7,348 nucleotides of DNA from IMG/VR virus record IMGVR_UViG_2537562221_000013; one strand, given 5' to 3'. Both the position numbers and the translations under genes were made by a program. The notes under the pieces were generated by a model that saw nothing but the letters and a program-made list of their open reading frames with translations, had not been told where the DNA came from and ran no database searches. Numbering within the stretch: the stretch's first letter is position 1; each line of letters begins with the position of its first letter. Origin of the DNA: a virus (Monodnaviria > Loebvirae > Hofneiviricota > Faserviricetes > Tubulavirales > Inoviridae). Of the stretch, positions 1-6,617 are shown in pieces.

Positions 1-325
1 CGGGCACATACAGGCAGAGTGGCCGTGAAAGAAAGCAATCAGCGATGGTGCTCTGACGGGTTCGAGTTCTGCTGTGATAACGGAGAGAGACTGCGTGTCA
101 CGTTCGCGCTGGACTGCTGTGATCGTGAGGCACTGCACTGGGCGGTCACTACCGGCGGCTTCAACAGTGAAACAGTACAGGACGTCATGCTGGGAGCGGT
201 GGAACGCCGCTTCGGCAACGATCTTCCGTCGTCTCCAGTGGAGTGGCTGACGGATAATGGTTCATGCTACCGGGCTAATGAAACACGCCAGTTCGCCCGG
301 ATGTTGGGACTTGAACCGAAGAACA
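1..325 (+). mobile_element. insD: IS2 (IS3 family) remnant, 3'-truncated; internal part of the orfB/InsD transposase reading frame, running off the left edge of the window
   Basis: Frame-1 translation ([108 protein letters not shown]) matches IS2 InsD as I recall it. Identity stops abruptly after ...GAACCGAAGAACA at about 325, where IS2 continues CGGCGGTG... but this window reads tccgtccttaa. The remaining InsD C-terminus (about 77 aa) and the right inverted repeat are absent. Confidence 0.85.
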
Positions 326-336
326 TCCGTCCTTAA
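1..336 (+). pseudogene. insD: Truncated IS2 InsD transposase gene; the last four codons plus stop (IRP*) come from non-IS2 sequence
   Basis: The ORF-track product 19..336 is an internal InsD segment. The frame is open from position 1 and ends at a stop created by the junction sequence. Confidence 0.8.
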
Positions 337-1427: not shown

Positions 1428-2672
1428 TCAGTTCAGGTTGTCCCGGAACAGTTCACCGCTCCTCGCGGCGCTGCGGGGCGTCGCCCTGCTCCGGTCAACC
1501 TTTCTGACCTGAAGCATCACCATAATATCAGTCTTGTTGCTTTCACTGGTACGGGAACCGAAGAAGCTCCAGCCGGAACTGGCCTTACTGTCTTTCTGTT
1601 CAGCAAGGCCACCAAGTAAAATAATATCACCATCTGCAAGGCTGACTTCGGTTGTTACATCACGCTTGATAAGGGTTGGCGAGTTATTGACGCCGGTTTC
1701 AGTGGTCACAAAGTTGGAAAGCTGCTGCTGAATCTTGAGATCCATTGTCCGACTTTTGATTGATGGCGTTACGTTAAACAAAACACCGCTGGAACGATAT
1801 TCAACGGATTGCGTGGTCGTATTGTTATTCACCGTAACACTGCCCAGTACTGGCACATCAGAGCCGACTGAAAAAGACGCTGAGGCATTATTTTTTACCC
1901 GCAGTCGTGGCGCACTGACAACAGTAAAACGACTGTCGGTTTTAAGCAGATTGAAAATGGCATCAATGGAGCCGGTTCGAATATTGATAAAATTATCCAG
2001 TCCGGCAGCACCAACTGAAATATTGAATTTATCAGACAGAATTTTAGCCGCTAAAAGAATGCCGGAGCCGTCAGACTGCGAGGTCTGAACCTCAAAAACA
2101 TAACCAGAAACAACCACTTCATCACTCATCGTATCCAGCGAAGTGACCAGTGTTTTCAGGATGGCGATATCCTCTTTCGTACCATAATAAACCAGAATAT
2201 CACCGGTTCGATTAATGTAGTTGCTTGCCCCTGATGAACCTTTTAGCGAATCGTCAGAAATCACGGCTCCACTGTTATTGAAGGAGCCTGAAACGTAGCC
2301 GCCAAGAATATCAGACAGGTAGGCAACAGAACGGTACTGAGGCGTATAAGTCCATGTATAACGTGGCTTAACCGGCTCTTTCGGCGTATAGGGCGCGATA
2401 AAATCAACACCCTTTTTCGTCCATATTCGAATGTTCATATTGCCAAGATAACGGGTTACAAATTCCCGTTCATCAATATCAGGTGTTAACCTGAATGTAA
2501 TCATTCGTTCATCATTAACAAGCTGTGGATCTAGCATATACGGGACTTTAAGCACCTCACTATAAATAAGAGAAATAGCCTCCGGTAGCTTGACTTTATT
2601 TAATTCAAGCTCTGACCCTGCGAAAGCACATGAAGAAAATAGTAGCGTTAATGCGAGTAAAATCTTTTTCAT
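1428..2672 (-). CDS. Filamentous-phage pIV-type secretin (outer-membrane export channel for virion extrusion), 414 aa
   Basis: N-terminal signal peptide MKKILLALTLLFSSCAFAGSE. The C-terminal half has secretin-like motifs (VVSAPRLRVKNNASASFSVGSDVPV, ILLGGLAEQKDSK). It is the last gene of the module, directly after pI as in Ff phages, and its start overlaps the pI stop by 1 nt (TAATG). Confidence 0.85.
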   Translation of the reverse strand: MKKILLALTLLFSSCAFAGSELELNKVKLPEAISLIYSEVLKVPYMLDPQLVNDERMITFRLTPDIDEREFVTRYLGNMNIRIWTKKGVDFIAPYTPKEPVKPRYTWTYTPQYRSVAYLSDILGGYVSGSFNNSGAVISDDSLKGSSGASNYINRTGDILVYYGTKEDIAILKTLVTSLDTMSDEVVVSGYVFEVQTSQSDGSGILLAAKILSDKFNISVGAAGLDNFINIRTGSIDAIFNLLKTDSRFTVVSAPRLRVKNNASASFSVGSDVPVLGSVTVNNNTTTQSVEYRSSGVLFNVTPSIKSRTMDLKIQQQLSNFVTTETGVNNSPTLIKRDVTTEVSLADGDIILLGGLAEQKDSKASSGWSFFGSRTSESNKTDIMVMLQVRKVDRSRATPRSAARSGELFRDNLN

Positions 2673-3697
2673 TATTTTTTCCCCGTATAAAGCGTCACAC
2701 GCTCACCATCAATAATTCCGCTCATCAACATCCCTTTGTAATTAAAACTGGATGCAGGAACGGCACGCAAAACACCGGCACCGTTAACAAGAATCACAAA
2801 CGCCCTGCCTTCACTGGTCATTCTCCCTGATATACGCCACTCGGTTGAAAGTGGCGGTTCAGCTGGTTCTGAGGGAGTATCTGGTGCTGGAGTAGCAGCG
2901 GAAGAACGAAACATGGCCGCATCACGTACATCTGTTGTAGCCAAATCTGGCGAGGGATCGCTTCGGCCAAACGTGCTGAAAAATGAGTAAATCAGCCAGC
3001 CTGACCCGATAAACATCAATGGAAAAAGCACAAGAAAGAACCTGACTTTGCCAGAATTCCAGATGCTCTGGCGTTTATCTGTCTGCTTTTCATTACCGTT
3101 ATTTCCTTCATAGCTTTTATAAAGTTCAAAAATATCAGGGTTATATTTATTGCGATAACTGGTGACGAGGTTGCTTTTATAGATTTTGTGGCCTGAATAT
3201 ACGTCAATGCAGTAATGATTATTCAGGCCCAACGCTTTCAGCTTGCGCATCCGGTAAGTTGTTTCTATTTTGTCTTTCAGAAAGCGAGCAATATTAGAAA
3301 GTGACTGATTTACAATAACCAAATCACAGCTAATACCCGTTTCAGGGTGCGTAAAATGACGATGTTCAGCAATAAATGATTTCTTCTCAGCCGTCATATC
3401 CTTATCGCTACCGAAGATTCGCCATGCTTCATCAATAACAATTAAATCACCAAACTGGCAAAAGCTCCCTTCCCCACCTTTAAAAGGAAAGAAATCTGCT
3501 TTAAGCACATCATCATTATCCACAACAATAATTTCTCCCGTTGCATCAGGATAACGTTCGGTGATTTTATCTTTTTGTAAACCATAAATGTTCGTCATAA
3601 CTCTCCGGCCGCTGGTAAATGCAGGAATAATGACATTGCAAACGGCTTCATAACTTTTTCCTGAGCCGGGTATGCCAATATATGCAGAAATAGCCAT
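2672..3697 (-). CDS. Filamentous-phage pI / Zot-family assembly NTPase, 341 aa
   Basis: N-terminal Walker A motif (GIPGSGKSY) and a downstream Walker B-like LIVIDEAW. A single internal hydrophobic segment (FFLVLFPLMFIGSGWLIYSFF) is followed by a Pro/Ser/Thr-rich C-terminal domain. This is the Zot/pI architecture, in the expected position between pVI and pIV. Confidence 0.85.
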   Translation of the reverse strand: MAISAYIGIPGSGKSYEAVCNVIIPAFTSGRRVMTNIYGLQKDKITERYPDATGEIIVVDNDDVLKADFFPFKGGEGSFCQFGDLIVIDEAWRIFGSDKDMTAEKKSFIAEHRHFTHPETGISCDLVIVNQSLSNIARFLKDKIETTYRMRKLKALGLNNHYCIDVYSGHKIYKSNLVTSYRNKYNPDIFELYKSYEGNNGNEKQTDKRQSIWNSGKVRFFLVLFPLMFIGSGWLIYSFFSTFGRSDPSPDLATTDVRDAAMFRSSAATPAPDTPSEPAEPPLSTEWRISGRMTSEGRAFVILVNGAGVLRAVPASSFNYKGMLMSGIIDGERVTLYTGKK

Positions 3698-3700
3698 AAC

Positions 3701-3988
3701 TCACCCTATAACAGGAATACGTCGAATAATAAAACGAGTAGCCATTGCGGAGATAATCATACTAATCCCCTGTGGTAATTTACTCAGGTTAATGAAGTAC
3801 CAGAATCCGTCTGATAAATTGGCAAACAGCGATGAGAGATTGCTTGAATCTGGCAGTAACTCAACAAGGATTTCAACGAAGCCCTGGACTACAAAATACA
3901 GCGCAAAGAATACGACGAATTTAATAATCAATGACCGGAATACAAAACCTAACAAAGTATTTAATGCACTAATCAGAATCCCAAACAT
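3701..3988 (-). CDS. Putative minor coat protein pVI-like, 95 aa, very hydrophobic
   Basis: Multiple hydrophobic segments, with size and position (between pIII and pI) matching gene VI of Ff-type phages. The assignment rests on position and composition, not on sequence identity. Confidence 0.65.
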   Translation of the reverse strand: MFGILISALNTLLGFVFRSLIIKFVVFFALYFVVQGFVEILVELLPDSSNLSSLFANLSDGFWYFINLSKLPQGISMIISAMATRFIIRRIPVIG

Positions 3989-4000
3989 AGTTGCACTCCT

Positions 4001-5713
4001 TTAGGCACTCAGAATAATACGGAGCGCAACAAATCCCCATATAATCAGAAAAATGGTTTCTACGGCGCTTCTGTTCTGCTCAATTAACGGACAATGGGAG
4101 GCAATTCTGTACTGGTGATTAAACACGCTGAATTCAACAACGGGGCAGGATGCTGAACGAGAGCCGATGTTAAATTCGTTTGTAAAAGGCAACAAGTTAA
4201 TAATTGGCGTTAAAATATCTCTTGCCGTTGGCGTTTCTTCAAGCTCAGGCTCTTTTACACCGGGATCTTCTCCCAAATCTATATTGCCATTATTTCCAGT
4301 GTCAGACCCTGAGTTGTTATTAATGGTAATATCAATATTGACGTCAGCCCCTGCACTGTCAGATACAGGTGAAAGCATATCTAATAACGTTGGAGATAGC
4401 CTAAGTTCCGACATCGCAGAAGTTACTTCAGCCGGTGAAACCTCTTTAAACGGTAAGCCGTTATAATCGGCATTAACGGCAGCTTCAGACCACAGCTCGT
4501 TAATCATGTCGGCAAGAAGTGCTGGCGATACACTAACACTATCAAGATACTCCAGATAATCAATCATGGACTCAATATTTCCGGCCTCCAGTACTTCCGT
4601 CATGGCTTTATATTTGGTATTGGTCCAGATAGTAAGCTCACTCTTTTCATCAATATCTTTTGCGGTGTAATCCTCTTTTTCAGGAACGGCGCAAATCGTC
4701 GAATATCCACCATTTGACTGATTAGTCGTTTTACAAGGCGTGTTGTGATACTGATATTGCTTGCCTGCTGTTAAATAAGCAACGCTGTAATACATGGGAA
4801 GCCCTGCTACATTTTCATACATGGGAATACCTGCGGGAAATGAAGATGCGGCCGGGTTGCTATACAAGTGTGTAATCTCAGGTATTTCATAAAATGAGGA
4901 AGGATAAGTAAACTTATAATTCTGTTCAGTAAAGGATACATCTCCATTACTGTTGACAACTTTATTCGTCACAGTGCGTTCAAAATTCGTTAGTGTTTCA
5001 GTATAAGTACGCGAGTTATAGTCATTAAGATAATTTCTGGCAATTTCAGTTGGATTATCACCATAGTAATAAATTAGCTCTTTCGAATCCTGATAATAAT
5101 AAAGCGCATTATCTGGCGTGGAATATCCTGTTTCAACACCTACAACTGGAGAACCCGCATCCACATTATTACGACTAACATGAAGGATTACCGGACTTAA
5201 TTCCTGTGGTTCAAAATTAACGGTTATCGTCTTACTTTCACCACTTTGACCACTGTACGTTACTTCATATAAATTATCGGAAATCTTTTTACCGTTAGTC
5301 ATTACCATTACCGAGCCGTCAGATGAACTCAAAGAAGACGGAACAAAAGATGATACAGCAGCAGCAATACCCGCCCACGTTGCAACACCGCTCATTTTGT
5401 ATGATGAGGCAGCAGGCAAGTATTCGGCAGCATTAGCCGCAGCGCGGCCAACAAAAACACGGGTTGCTGTAAGCTGTGATGCCGTATAAATCGCATCATT
5501 GGCAGCAAAGCGACGAACAAGCACCCGGCCAACGACTTTAGGAATAACAGCCCGCGCAGCCACTGCTGCAATTGCTGGTACAAATGAATATGAATATCGG
5601 GGAAAGGAAACCCAGAGAAAGGAAAAAATAAAGGAATAAACCGTCAGCCTCTTAGCCCAAGAATAACGACATAAGCTGAGACGATCCCCCATAAAAGGGA
5701 ACCCAATTTCCAT
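4001..5713 (-). CDS. Putative adsorption/minor coat protein pIII-like (570 aa as the maximal ORF; an internal signal-peptide-like Met at 5395 would give about 465 aa)
   Basis: Largest gene, sited between pVIII and pVI. It has a Gly/Ser/Asn-rich linker (NNNSGSDTGNNGN), two Cys near the C-terminus and a C-terminal hydrophobic anchor (VETIFLIIWGFVALRIILSA). The ATG at 5713 has a GGAGA RBS 7 nt upstream. The ATG at 5395 (MSGVATWAGIAAAVSSFVPSS) looks signal-peptide-like but has no SD. Confidence 0.7.
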   Translation of the reverse strand: MEIGFPFMGDRLSLCRYSWAKRLTVYSFIFSFLWVSFPRYSYSFVPAIAAVAARAVIPKVVGRVLVRRFAANDAIYTASQLTATRVFVGRAAANAAEYLPAASSYKMSGVATWAGIAAAVSSFVPSSLSSSDGSVMVMTNGKKISDNLYEVTYSGQSGESKTITVNFEPQELSPVILHVSRNNVDAGSPVVGVETGYSTPDNALYYYQDSKELIYYYGDNPTEIARNYLNDYNSRTYTETLTNFERTVTNKVVNSNGDVSFTEQNYKFTYPSSFYEIPEITHLYSNPAASSFPAGIPMYENVAGLPMYYSVAYLTAGKQYQYHNTPCKTTNQSNGGYSTICAVPEKEDYTAKDIDEKSELTIWTNTKYKAMTEVLEAGNIESMIDYLEYLDSVSVSPALLADMINELWSEAAVNADYNGLPFKEVSPAEVTSAMSELRLSPTLLDMLSPVSDSAGADVNIDITINNNSGSDTGNNGNIDLGEDPGVKEPELEETPTARDILTPIINLLPFTNEFNIGSRSASCPVVEFSVFNHQYRIASHCPLIEQNRSAVETIFLIIWGFVALRIILSA

Positions 5714-5736
5714 AATTCAATCTCCATAATAACCTC

Positions 5737-5764
5737 AAGTAAAACGGGCGATATTGTATCGCCC
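5737..5764 (-). terminator. Rho-independent terminator downstream of the major coat protein gene
   Basis: Perfect 8-bp stem GGGCGATA / TATCGCCC (5746-5753 / 5757-5764) with a 3-nt loop. On the minus-strand transcript it is followed by GUUUUACUU. This matches the position of the strong terminator after gene VIII in Ff phages. Confidence 0.6.
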
Positions 5765-5777
5765 ATGAATAATGAAT

Positions 5778-6011
5778 TTATGCGGATTTAACGGTACGCA
5801 ATACCCAGCGAACGCCAGCGACACCGGCATAAAGTGTTACCAGTGAAGCAGCAACGGCCATAATCGCAACCAGAACTGTACTGAAATCAATGCTGTTCGT
5901 CAGCGGCGATAAATCAACACCACTTGATGCCGCTCCTTCTGCAGCGAAAGTCGCGCCAGAAACAGCCATTAATGCAGGTACAGCCAGAAAACTAACGATT
6001 TTTTTAAACAT
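5778..6011 (-). CDS. Major coat protein pVIII-like, 77-aa precursor
   Basis: Signal peptide (MFKKIVSFLAVPALMAVSGATFA), then an acidic N-terminal segment (AEGAASSGVD), a hydrophobic core (VLVAIMAVAASLVTLYAGVAGV) and a basic C-terminus (RWVLRTVKSA). This is the classic inovirus major capsid layout. GGAGA RBS 7 nt upstream. Confidence 0.85.
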   Translation of the reverse strand: MFKKIVSFLAVPALMAVSGATFAAEGAASSGVDLSPLTNSIDFSTVLVAIMAVAASLVTLYAGVAGVRWVLRTVKSA

Positions 6012-6045: not shown

Positions 6046-6297
6046 TCAAGCAGTACGAACCATCTTTATTACCTGTCCCACACCTACAGAAAAAAGCCAG
6101 AGCAGCAGGACAGAGTCAAAACCTAATGTCCAGTAATTTCCCATTGCAGAATAATCAATTTGATGAAATGGTTCAGAACGTACCATTATTGCCTGACATT
6201 CTTTTGCATTGTTCGCATTACATAAATAACCTTCAATACGGTAACCATTTTCAGGAATATGATTATCAAACTGAATATCGAAACCTGATGTATCCAT
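6046..6297 (-). CDS. Hypothetical phage protein, 83 aa, with a C-terminal transmembrane segment; in the pVII/pIX (minor coat) position but larger
   Basis: C-terminal hydrophobic stretch SVLLLWLFSVGVGQVIKMV. It follows the upstream gene after a 2-nt gap, with a weak AAGG RBS. Confidence 0.5.
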   Translation of the reverse strand: MDTSGFDIQFDNHIPENGYRIEGYLCNANNAKECQAIMVRSEPFHQIDYSAMGNYWTLGFDSVLLLWLFSVGVGQVIKMVRTA

Positions 6298-6299
6298 AA

Positions 6300-6617
6300 T
6301 CAGCCTTTTATTTCAGTAATGCCGCCATCTGATGAAATGTTATAAGTTACTCCTTCCCTCCCCTCCATTGACCAGACGCGAACATATACAGGTATCTGGA
6401 CTAACTTACCGATAAAATTATTTGCCTGATTCATTACACCGGCATTAACAAGAGCCTGAGATACACGAATAATAATCTGGTCTTGCTTAGTGCCACCAAA
6501 ACCATCAGGAATCTCTAAGCCAACACCAATTTCATTATAGTATCCCTGACCATTGACCTTATTACGCTGGCGAGCACCAAGCATTTTACCTTTTACAAAA
6601 AGACCATAATTAGACAT
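6300..6617 (-). CDS. Hypothetical phage protein, 105 aa; candidate ssDNA-binding protein (gene V position)
   Basis: Strong RBS AAGGAGAG about 5 nt upstream of the ATG. Gly-rich with predicted beta character. The function is inferred from gene order only. Confidence 0.5.
   Translation of the reverse strand: MSNYGLFVKGKMLGARQRNKVNGQGYYNEIGVGLEIPDGFGGTKQDQIIIRVSQALVNAGVMNQANNFIGKLVQIPVYVRVWSMEGREGVTYNISSDGGITEIKG

Follow-up and report, generated by a model that had tools for sequence, protein, structure and literature searches.

The DNA analysed here, called the window throughout, is a stretch of 7,348 nucleotides from IMG/VR virus record IMGVR_UViG_2537562221_000013 (Inoviridae); judged by its sequence, it is a degraded filamentous prophage of the CUS-1/YpfPhi type with its genes on the minus strand. 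Our subject is the 5′ end of the adsorption protein gene, gIII, and a small open reading frame (ORF) that overlaps it. The ORF 5713..4001 (-) encodes 570 aa and begins within a 27-codon ORF, 5727..5644 (-), that lies in another frame, so that the two start sites, at 5727 and 5713, are 14 nt apart. Both starts have a Shine-Dalgarno (SD) sequence: GAGG at 5733..5736 (-), 5 nt before ATG 5727, and GGAG at 5722..5725 (-), which is made of small-ORF codons 1-2 and is separated from ATG 5713 by an 8-nt spacer. The computed anti-SD duplex energies are -6.3 and -6.4 kcal/mol, respectively; the latter equals that of the major coat protein gene gVIII, and the GGAG is kept in the clade with 63-66% identity. 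A further ATG of the long frame, at 5395, is codon 107, 106 codons downstream of ATG 5713, and no SD is found upstream of it (+2.2 kcal/mol). A sequence-only reading of this locus had given these coordinates and ribosome-binding sites correctly; it had also described the methionine at 5395 as signal-peptide-like, the 106-codon extension as an anomaly, and the start and architecture of the adsorption protein (pIII) as uncertain.

To compare the frames, the DNA of pIII homologues was aligned and ratios of nonsynonymous to synonymous substitution rates (dN/dS, Nei-Gojobori) were calculated in all three frames for six lineage pairs. In pIII codons 24-130, dN/dS is 0.04-0.19 in the pIII frame and exceeds 1 in both other frames, and the variable sites are distributed over codon positions 1, 2 and 3 as 33, 17 and 83. 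At the protein level, six homologues with 88, 83, 66, 63, 37 and 36% identity align across the whole 570 aa from residue 1. An open stretch of 106 codons has a chance probability of about 0.002 at the local base composition. Since dN/dS in the pIII frame is low from codon 24 on, the extension is, on this comparative evidence, translated and genuine coding sequence. The earlier suggestion of real coding is thus borne out, with the extension retained in homologues down to 36% identity, whereas its description as an anomaly is not: homologues carry the full-length form, the very outcome that had been named as marking a genuine domain.

The pattern is reversed in the overlap. The small ORF has dN/dS of 0.03-0.15 in its own frame, whereas these nucleotides, taken as pIII codons 1-23, give 1.6-2.6, and a codon-by-codon table contains many substitutions that alter pIII residues but leave the small peptide unchanged. 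Each of the invariant pIII residues of codons 1-22 (G9, Y17, S18 and R22) follows from invariant codons of the small ORF, and it is exactly at the stop of the small ORF that selection passes from one frame to the other. This ORF (5644..5727, -; ATG 5727, stop TGA 5646-5644) is intact in every lineage examined. Its predicted product, MEIELWKLGSLLWGIVSAYVVILGLRG, is a 27-aa peptide with a single hydrophobic helix: an acidic N-terminus, an 18-residue hydrophobic core, LGSLLWGIVSAYVVILGL, and a basic residue near the C-terminus, with the stretches MEIELWK and LGSLLWGIVSAYVVILGLR. In the close clades the peptide reads ME[IML]ELWKL[GL]SL[LF]WGI[VI]SAYVVILGL[RK]G, and in the clade with 36-37% identity MWD[IF][VA]VFLWGLLCAWAVIQGLSG[HR]. 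Further versions are MTWQMIFFIWGLLCAYVVIRGIDG in Dulem virus 52 and MLWDFAYFLLGMVCGLVVVLGLNG in Inovirus D_HF5_61, unannotated in both GenBank entries, and MWELMSFFTGVLCAWAIIQGFNSY in IMG/VR contig L038. The motif WG(L/I)(L/V)(C/S)A(W/Y)(A/V)VI.G persists across lineages in which pIII is only about 25-37% identical.

Could this ORF be no gene at all, its conservation being a shadow of the pIII frame, or a regulatory upstream ORF whose peptide is irrelevant? It is very short, overlaps gIII, has no counterpart among the families of Pfam or PHROGs, and was annotated in none of the records examined, RefSeq E. coli genomes included; as a 27-aa or a 40-aa form, it was also missing from a collection of 15 billion proteins. 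Its absence from Pfam, PHROGs and gene-caller output is, however, attributable to a length below 30 codons combined with the gIII overlap. Within that overlap it is the small-ORF frame that is constrained and the pIII frame that is not, the peptide is conserved where gIII does not overlap it (L038 and the ten non-overlapping arrangements described below), and the WG..A motif outlasts extensive divergence of pIII. We therefore regard the absence of a gene as very unlikely; on the substitution patterns, the 27-codon ORF is a real and strongly conserved gene, and the earlier remark on its GAGG site and its resemblance to pVII/pIX in size and hydrophobicity was well placed. A longer, 40-aa form from ATG 5766 was rejected: that codon is part of a terminator stem, no SD precedes it (+1.6 kcal/mol), and other lineages lack it.

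Which codon starts gIII can be approached from the same data. The best-supported product is the 570-aa form from ATG 5713. ATG 5692 (codon 8), with a duplex of -3.6 kcal/mol, is a less likely start, and ATG, GTG and TTG are absent between pIII codons 8 and 51. In lineage L059, the ATG at codon 1 is the sole canonical gIII start. RefSeq/PGAP annotation of complete E. coli genomes places the start at the GTG of codon 51 (5561..5563, -), giving a 520-aa protein, and both the 570-aa and 520-aa versions are present in databases as 'hypothetical protein'. If this annotation were right, the 214 nt to gVIII would be intergenic; the 520-aa form is indeed widespread in protein databases, and other pipelines call the 570-aa form. 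We nevertheless judge the GTG 5563 start to be wrong, and the annotated form hardly plausible, because the codon has no SD (+0.9 kcal/mol), because the codons upstream are conserved coding sequence (codons 24-50 alone have dN/dS of 0.03-0.29), and because a signal peptide conserved across the family would be lost.

The methionine at codon 107 (5393..5395, -) was the other candidate. Were pIII to begin there, MSGVATWAGIAAAVSSFVPSS would be its signal peptide and the 106 upstream codons would be non-coding or part of something else. The segment is moderately hydrophobic (Kyte-Doolittle 1.1-1.4) and preceded by a lysine, and a 63-codon ORF in the small-ORF frame (5583..5392) ends in a TGA that overlaps ATG 5395 as ATGA, an arrangement resembling translational coupling. 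That ORF was rejected as a coupled upstream gene, as it is interrupted by stops in L011, L007, L003 and L004 and its frame has dN/dS above 1. An ATG at codon 107 occurs only in the window's own clade; L006, L014, L007, L003 and L004 have ATA, ATC or ATT there, and the alignment column is variable across the family. Because of these codons and the missing SD, Met107 is taken as an internal residue, and a start at this position has a probability that we regard as close to negligible. Purifying selection on codons 24-106 is strong in the pIII frame, and the model buries the hydrophobic segment as a strand and helix (predicted local distance difference test, pLDDT, 90-96). The supposed signal-peptide-like sequence, MSGVATWAGIAAAV, is likewise modelled within a folded domain, as is GVATWAGIAAAV at pLDDT 90-96. 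The outcome that homologues would uniformly start at the equivalent of this methionine was not seen: the codon varies and the extension is conserved.

The signal peptide of pIII, which had gone unrecognised, is predicted to occupy residues 1-43. Signal peptides processed by signal peptidase I (SPase I) in the Sec pathway have a positively charged n-region, a hydrophobic h-region of 10-20 residues, residues at -3 and -1 that are small and uncharged, and a residue other than proline at +1. In a 38-sequence alignment of N-termini from the family, a basic n-region is followed by a hydrophobic h-region, a small-x-small pattern and then [N/F/L]-P. Of the 38 sequences, 37 have A, S, V or C at position -3; the count is likewise 37 for A or S at position -1 and for Pro46. 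In the window, codons 1-22 (5648..5713, -) form a long n-region overlapped by the small ORF, in which ATG 5692 also lies; as noted above, this segment shows no protein-level constraint of its own (dN/dS 1.6-2.6), and it contains R11, R16, K21 and R22. Codons 23-43 (5585..5647, -) encode the h-region LTVYSFIFSFLWVSF and the c-region PRYSYS, with S41-Y-S43 before F44 and the proline at +3; this assignment draws on the family alignment, the dN/dS of codons 24-50 and the AlphaFold2 model. Cleavage is predicted at PRYSYS|FVPAIAAV, i.e., S43|F44. The model places a helix at residues 19-36, followed by a low-confidence stretch at 37-46, and residues 1-15 and 37-46 have pLDDT below 50. In L038, where the small gene and gIII are separate, pIII starts with MIKYSFKKQ, nine residues before its own h-region. 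An alternative topology with three transmembrane segments in residues 23-125 was not favoured, as the second and third segments are amphipathic or Gly-rich in the wider family and are folded by AlphaFold2.

Downstream of the predicted cleavage site, codons 44-130 (5324..5584, -) encode an Ala/Val/Arg-rich module at the N-terminus of the putative mature protein. It comprises an amphipathic helix ending in an R-R-x-A-A-N-D-like motif, a second helix, and a near-invariant G-x-x-T-W-A-G motif; dN/dS across this segment is 0.04-0.29. The AlphaFold2 model of pIII, built on a 33-sequence alignment (mean pLDDT 81), has helices at residues 46-53, 56-71 and 78-96 and a strand and helix at 110-119, with blocks within 51-140 at pLDDT 79-96. 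A hidden Markov model (HMM) of residues 1-135 matches more than 40 of the distant pIII-like proteins retrieved (400-600 aa), whose centres are unrelated. A profile search of 1.84 billion representatives gave 777 matches; in most of the 150 matches listed, profile positions of about 380-572 are covered, which makes the C-terminal part the most widely shared of the family. By these alignments, conservation in the family is highest in two parts, one of them the N-terminal module, and variation is concentrated in the centre, approximately residues 135-380, which presumably serves receptor binding.

The module coincides with the GC-rich tract. In 150-nt windows, GC content is 0.49-0.52 over approximately 5330-5620 versus 0.37-0.42 on either side, and G occupies the first codon position in 0.47-0.49 of codons 44-130 versus 0.31 of codons 131-400, so the local GC rise and the G-rich first positions pointed out previously are real. 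The tract had also been considered an insert, in a region where host-range modules tend to be swapped. A horizontally acquired insert or swapped host-range module would account for a local GC of up to 0.52 against flanks of about 0.40, and N-terminal parts of Ff-type pIII do bind receptors. However, GC content at the three codon positions of codons 44-130 is 0.62 (GC1), 0.60 (GC2) and 0.32 (GC3), and the GC3 of the next 270 codons is also 0.32. The rise is confined to positions 1 and 2 because of the amino acid composition, 23 Ala, 12 Val and 6 Arg making up 41 of the 87 residues. In addition, the tract belongs to the most conserved parts of the family and is joined to many different central regions, and no close relatives lacking it or carrying an unrelated tract were found. 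We consequently give almost no weight to an inserted or swapped module.

For the remainder of pIII, the model has a beta-rich region at residues 135-378, a disordered linker at 467-488 and a C-terminal transmembrane helix at 548-569. The latter agrees with a hydrophobic segment (Kyte-Doolittle 1.9-2.3; residues ~548-569, 4007..4072, -) that is the putative membrane anchor. Residues of about 135-380 are modelled at pLDDT 90-97 with many long beta-strands, e.g., a strand drawn over 259-288. The pIII model had no significant structural match in the PDB or BFVD (Foldseek E 0.02 or worse), a PDB sequence search with pIII found nothing, and no sequence or structural relation to the solved g3p domains was detected in these searches. 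The non-significant Foldseek list consists mostly of beta-pore-forming toxins (alpha-hemolysin, VCC, MACPF, gasdermin), probably through the long hairpins alone. The product is classed as pIII from its predicted features, namely position, signal peptide and C-terminal anchor, and not from homology to Ff g3p; gVIII lies upstream, and DUF2523 (pVI), Zot (pI) and secretin genes lie downstream. Among protein clusters, the 90%-identity cluster of P0001, which holds this pIII, also lists secretin (GspD) members of 379-414 aa, and in P0010 (737 aa) and P0017 (462 aa) a secretin domain is joined to pIII residues; such mixtures are probably clustering or assembly artefacts from chimeric gene calls.

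The distribution of the small gene was assessed by scanning IMG/VR with a degenerate DNA pattern for WG..(C/S)A(W/Y).VI.G. The scan returned 94 contigs, mostly 5-12 kb, with 57 distinct peptides of 17-30 aa. At these loci the stop is always 14-17 codons past the conserved Trp, and an ORF of 400-650 aa comes next almost every time. An in-frame pIII start lies within the small ORF in 42 of the 52 distinct arrangements, commonly as an ATG 34 nt before the stop; this position yields a recurrent pIII N-terminus, MR[LM]G[SC], which is the shadow of CAWAV in the other frame. The other 10 of the 52 are non-overlapping, with the pIII ATG either 1 nt ahead of the stop, as in ATGA, or a few nt past it. 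In a distant clade (L003, L004 and L037), the small-ORF ATG and a GTG of the pIII frame, 2 nt apart, together form ATGTG with one GAGG upstream of both, so both frames would need initiation from one ribosome-binding site.

That the selected frame switches precisely at the small-ORF stop codon would also be expected if programmed frameshifting joined the small ORF to gIII, the peptide then being the true N-terminus of pIII. Against this, an X XXY YYZ slippery heptamer is missing, and the clades share no conserved sequence where the small ORF ends (3′). In-frame starts with an SD are present wherever the two ORFs overlap; where they do not, gIII begins at an ATG of its own, right at the stop or past it, and continues into a normal signal peptide. 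Frameshifting of this kind is extremely improbable, and two separately initiated genes remain the preferred reading. Termination-reinitiation at the small-ORF stop was likewise rejected for this lineage, since no start-like codon is conserved there (codon 23 is CTG, ATA or TCA).

Between the gVIII stop and the SD of the small ORF lies a putative intrinsic terminator or attenuator (5738..5766, -), a hairpin GGGCGAU-ACAAU-AUCGCCC followed by a U-tract, which was identified by a terminator scan and has an RNA folding z of -2.2. By eye, a hairpin and T-run are present at the same place in eight other lineages (L010, L006, L007, L003, L004, L038, L039 and L040), of which RNAfold drew seven, the exception being L040. 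The stems differ yet keep pairing (GGGCGAU/AUCGCCC, GGGCGGC/GUCGCCC, GGGGC/GCCCC, GGGAGC/GCUCCC and others), and the element can be likened to the terminator after Ff gene VIII. Given its position, the small gene and gIII are presumably expressed at a low level from read-through transcripts. With starts 14 nt apart here and 2 nt apart in the distant clade, the two are presumably translated from the same transcripts at linked levels.

Proteins of the pVII/pIX type sit at the leading tip of the virion, in about five copies, and assembly cannot start without them. In Ff phages, pVII (33 aa) and pIX (32 aa) are single helices made without signal sequences, and their C-terminal residues contact the packaging signal (PMC10175506); their genes use coupled starts (PMC7697814). 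The small peptide resembles them in size, in having a single hydrophobic helix and no signal sequence, in belonging to a structural module beside gVIII, and in its tightly packed or overlapping starts; with 27 aa, one hydrophobic helix and a gene between gVIII and gIII, it agrees in these traits with the pVII/pIX type. By analogy, it is most likely a pVII/pIX-like minor virion or assembly membrane protein. VGJphi (AY242528) has the same gene order as the window, rep-ssb-ORF81-ORF44 (major coat)-ORF29-ORF493 (adsorption)-ORF80-ORF384, and its ORF29 encodes a single hydrophobic helix of 29 aa that ends in a basic residue and is annotated as 'putative minor capsid protein'. Unlike the small gene of the window, ORF29 does not overlap ORF493, and ORF493 has a short ordinary signal peptide without the N-terminal module. 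As for pIII itself, Ff g3p and the window protein are alike in genome position, in a cleavable N-terminal signal peptide (predicted here), in a variable receptor-binding part within a modular build, and in a flexible linker and conserved C-terminal domain that ends in a membrane anchor.

Taken together, we consider it probable (about 80%) that this stretch holds two genes: gIII, starting at ATG 5713 and encoding a Sec signal followed by a conserved module, and a separate 27-codon gene for a membrane peptide. The earlier doubt about pIII is therefore partly upheld, in that the start differs among lineages and the exact codon is inferred, and partly settled, in that the architecture reads as a signal peptide plus conserved module from ATG 5713. 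Under this two-gene reading, translation from ATG 5713 (less likely 5692) would give a 570-aa precursor, SPase I would cut at S43|F44, and mature pIII would start with FVPAIAAV. The mature protein would then consist of a helical module of about 85 residues in a folded N-terminal domain, a variable beta-rich centre, a linker, and a conserved C-terminal domain with its anchor. In this lineage, the gIII start may have moved upstream into the small gene, so that small-peptide codons 6-27 would double as an unconstrained pIII n-region in the other frame, with the small-peptide frame under selection as far as its stop and the pIII frame past that point. The small peptide would insert in the inner membrane without a signal sequence, as a minor virion or assembly protein.

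Several points weigh against this interpretation. The pIII N-terminus, its cleavage and the peptide itself are predictions from sequence and models. In a MAFFT alignment, no meaningful likeness between the small peptide and Ff pVII/pIX was detected, and its gene lies downstream of gVIII and overlaps gIII, whereas the Ff pVII/pIX genes lie between gV and gVIII. With VGJphi ORF29 it shares only a generic hydrophobic resemblance (12-sequence alignment), and in VGJphi the terminator hairpin comes after ORF29, not before it, so expression levels may differ. The IMG/VR scan was selected on the peptide motif itself and thus speaks to distribution and ORF integrity rather than independent discovery. 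An n-region of 22 residues is long for a Sec signal peptide. The position of the gIII start varies by lineage: codon 8 (ATG 5692) is ATG, TTG or GTG in eight of the eight lineages compared, a pattern for which a small-ORF Trp codon is largely responsible, and the most distant clade has in-frame starts also at codons 12 and 14, in addition to the pIII-frame GTG 2 nt from the small-ORF ATG. Finally, the pIII model is without a significant structural match that could point to a role for its N-terminal module.

Over the 2.5 kb around the feature, identity to the 20 best-matching E. coli chromosomes, uropathogenic E. coli F11 among them, is 99.7-99.9%; identity is ≥99% in 109 of the 110 matching records, and the pIII ORF is 99% identical in Yersinia pestis (NCTC5923). 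YpfPhi of Y. pestis and CUS-1 of E. coli O18:K1:H7 are the same element as the window, whose gene order rep-ssb-83aa-gVIII-gIII-gVI-Zot-secretin agrees with the published description (PMC4266046). Other searches returned little: megablast against the phage collection gave no match, tblastn against phages gave only C-terminal matches to two uncultured inoviruses, a locus search with the single distant proteins P0022 and P0038 found nothing, and a second homologous-protein search with the alignment as query returned close relatives only.

All genes from gII to gIV lie on the minus strand. The 77-aa major coat protein precursor gVIII (5778..6011), directly upstream of the feature, is weakly matched by Pfam Phage_Coat_B and matches PHROG 2186, 'virion structural protein', with an E value of 4e-29. 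Upstream of it are a gene for an 83-aa membrane protein (6046-6297), gV (6300-6617) and a gII remnant with the C-terminal domain only (G2P_X_C, 6629-6943); downstream are gIII (4001..5713, called as an ORF and supported by gene order and full-length homologues), gVI (DUF2523, 3701-3988), gI (Zot, 2672-3697) and gIV (secretin, 1428-2672). Unlike published YpfPhi, the window copy is degraded and the prophage defective, with an insertion sequence (IS) element at one end and an IS fragment at the other: gII keeps only its C-terminal 104 codons versus 350 aa in intact copies, and IS1 (InsA, 7047-7322) lies directly past the truncation. At the left end (window 1-336), a transposase fragment with an rve domain (19-336), IS2/IS3-like by our reading, stops abruptly, so the far side of the prophage also seems bounded or disrupted by an IS element.

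In the 83-aa protein, encoded between gV and gVIII, the N-terminal half is soluble, and a hydrophobic helix near the C-terminus leads into a basic end (...VIKMVRTA). Its PHROG match is 3679, for which the function is listed as unknown, and its positional counterpart in VGJphi is ORF81 ('putative minor capsid protein'); in E. coli DA33137 its gene is a pseudogene with an internal stop. In the metagenomic lineages L007, L008 and L009, whose pIII is 63% identical, a 230-aa ORF with a secretin domain directly follows gIII and no gVI or Zot was called between them, which suggests a deleted or rearranged assembly module.

YpfPhi has been described with 13 ORFs (PMC4266046). The YPO numbers named for it, as counted here, leave no slot for a 27-aa gene, on which the paper itself is silent (PMC4266046). 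The present reading would thus add a conserved gene to this genome and correct the gene model of the YpfPhi/CUS-1 adsorption protein, in a prophage linked to virulence in Y. pestis and extraintestinal pathogenic E. coli. The 520-aa RefSeq model drops the signal peptide, and a product expressed or displayed from that annotation would be non-secreted. More generally, the locus is a worked example of how the selected frame in overlapping genes can be read from synonymous and non-synonymous patterns. More tentatively, and with the odds somewhat against it, the 24-30-aa peptide (..LW....F.WGLLCAWAVI.GL.G) could be an unrecognised essential structural or assembly part of a large inovirus clade that includes YpfPhi/CUS-1, its interlock with the gIII start serving, as a conserved arrangement, to set how much peptide is made relative to adsorption protein; the start geometry (2-14 nt apart or with a shared SD in overlapping lineages, ATGA-coupled in non-overlapping ones) is what points in this direction. 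Tip and assembly proteins are poorly defined for inoviruses other than the Ff phages. The small gene would be a conserved candidate for such a role, and one open to a direct test by clean knockout, given that the pIII codons overlapping it are free of constraint.

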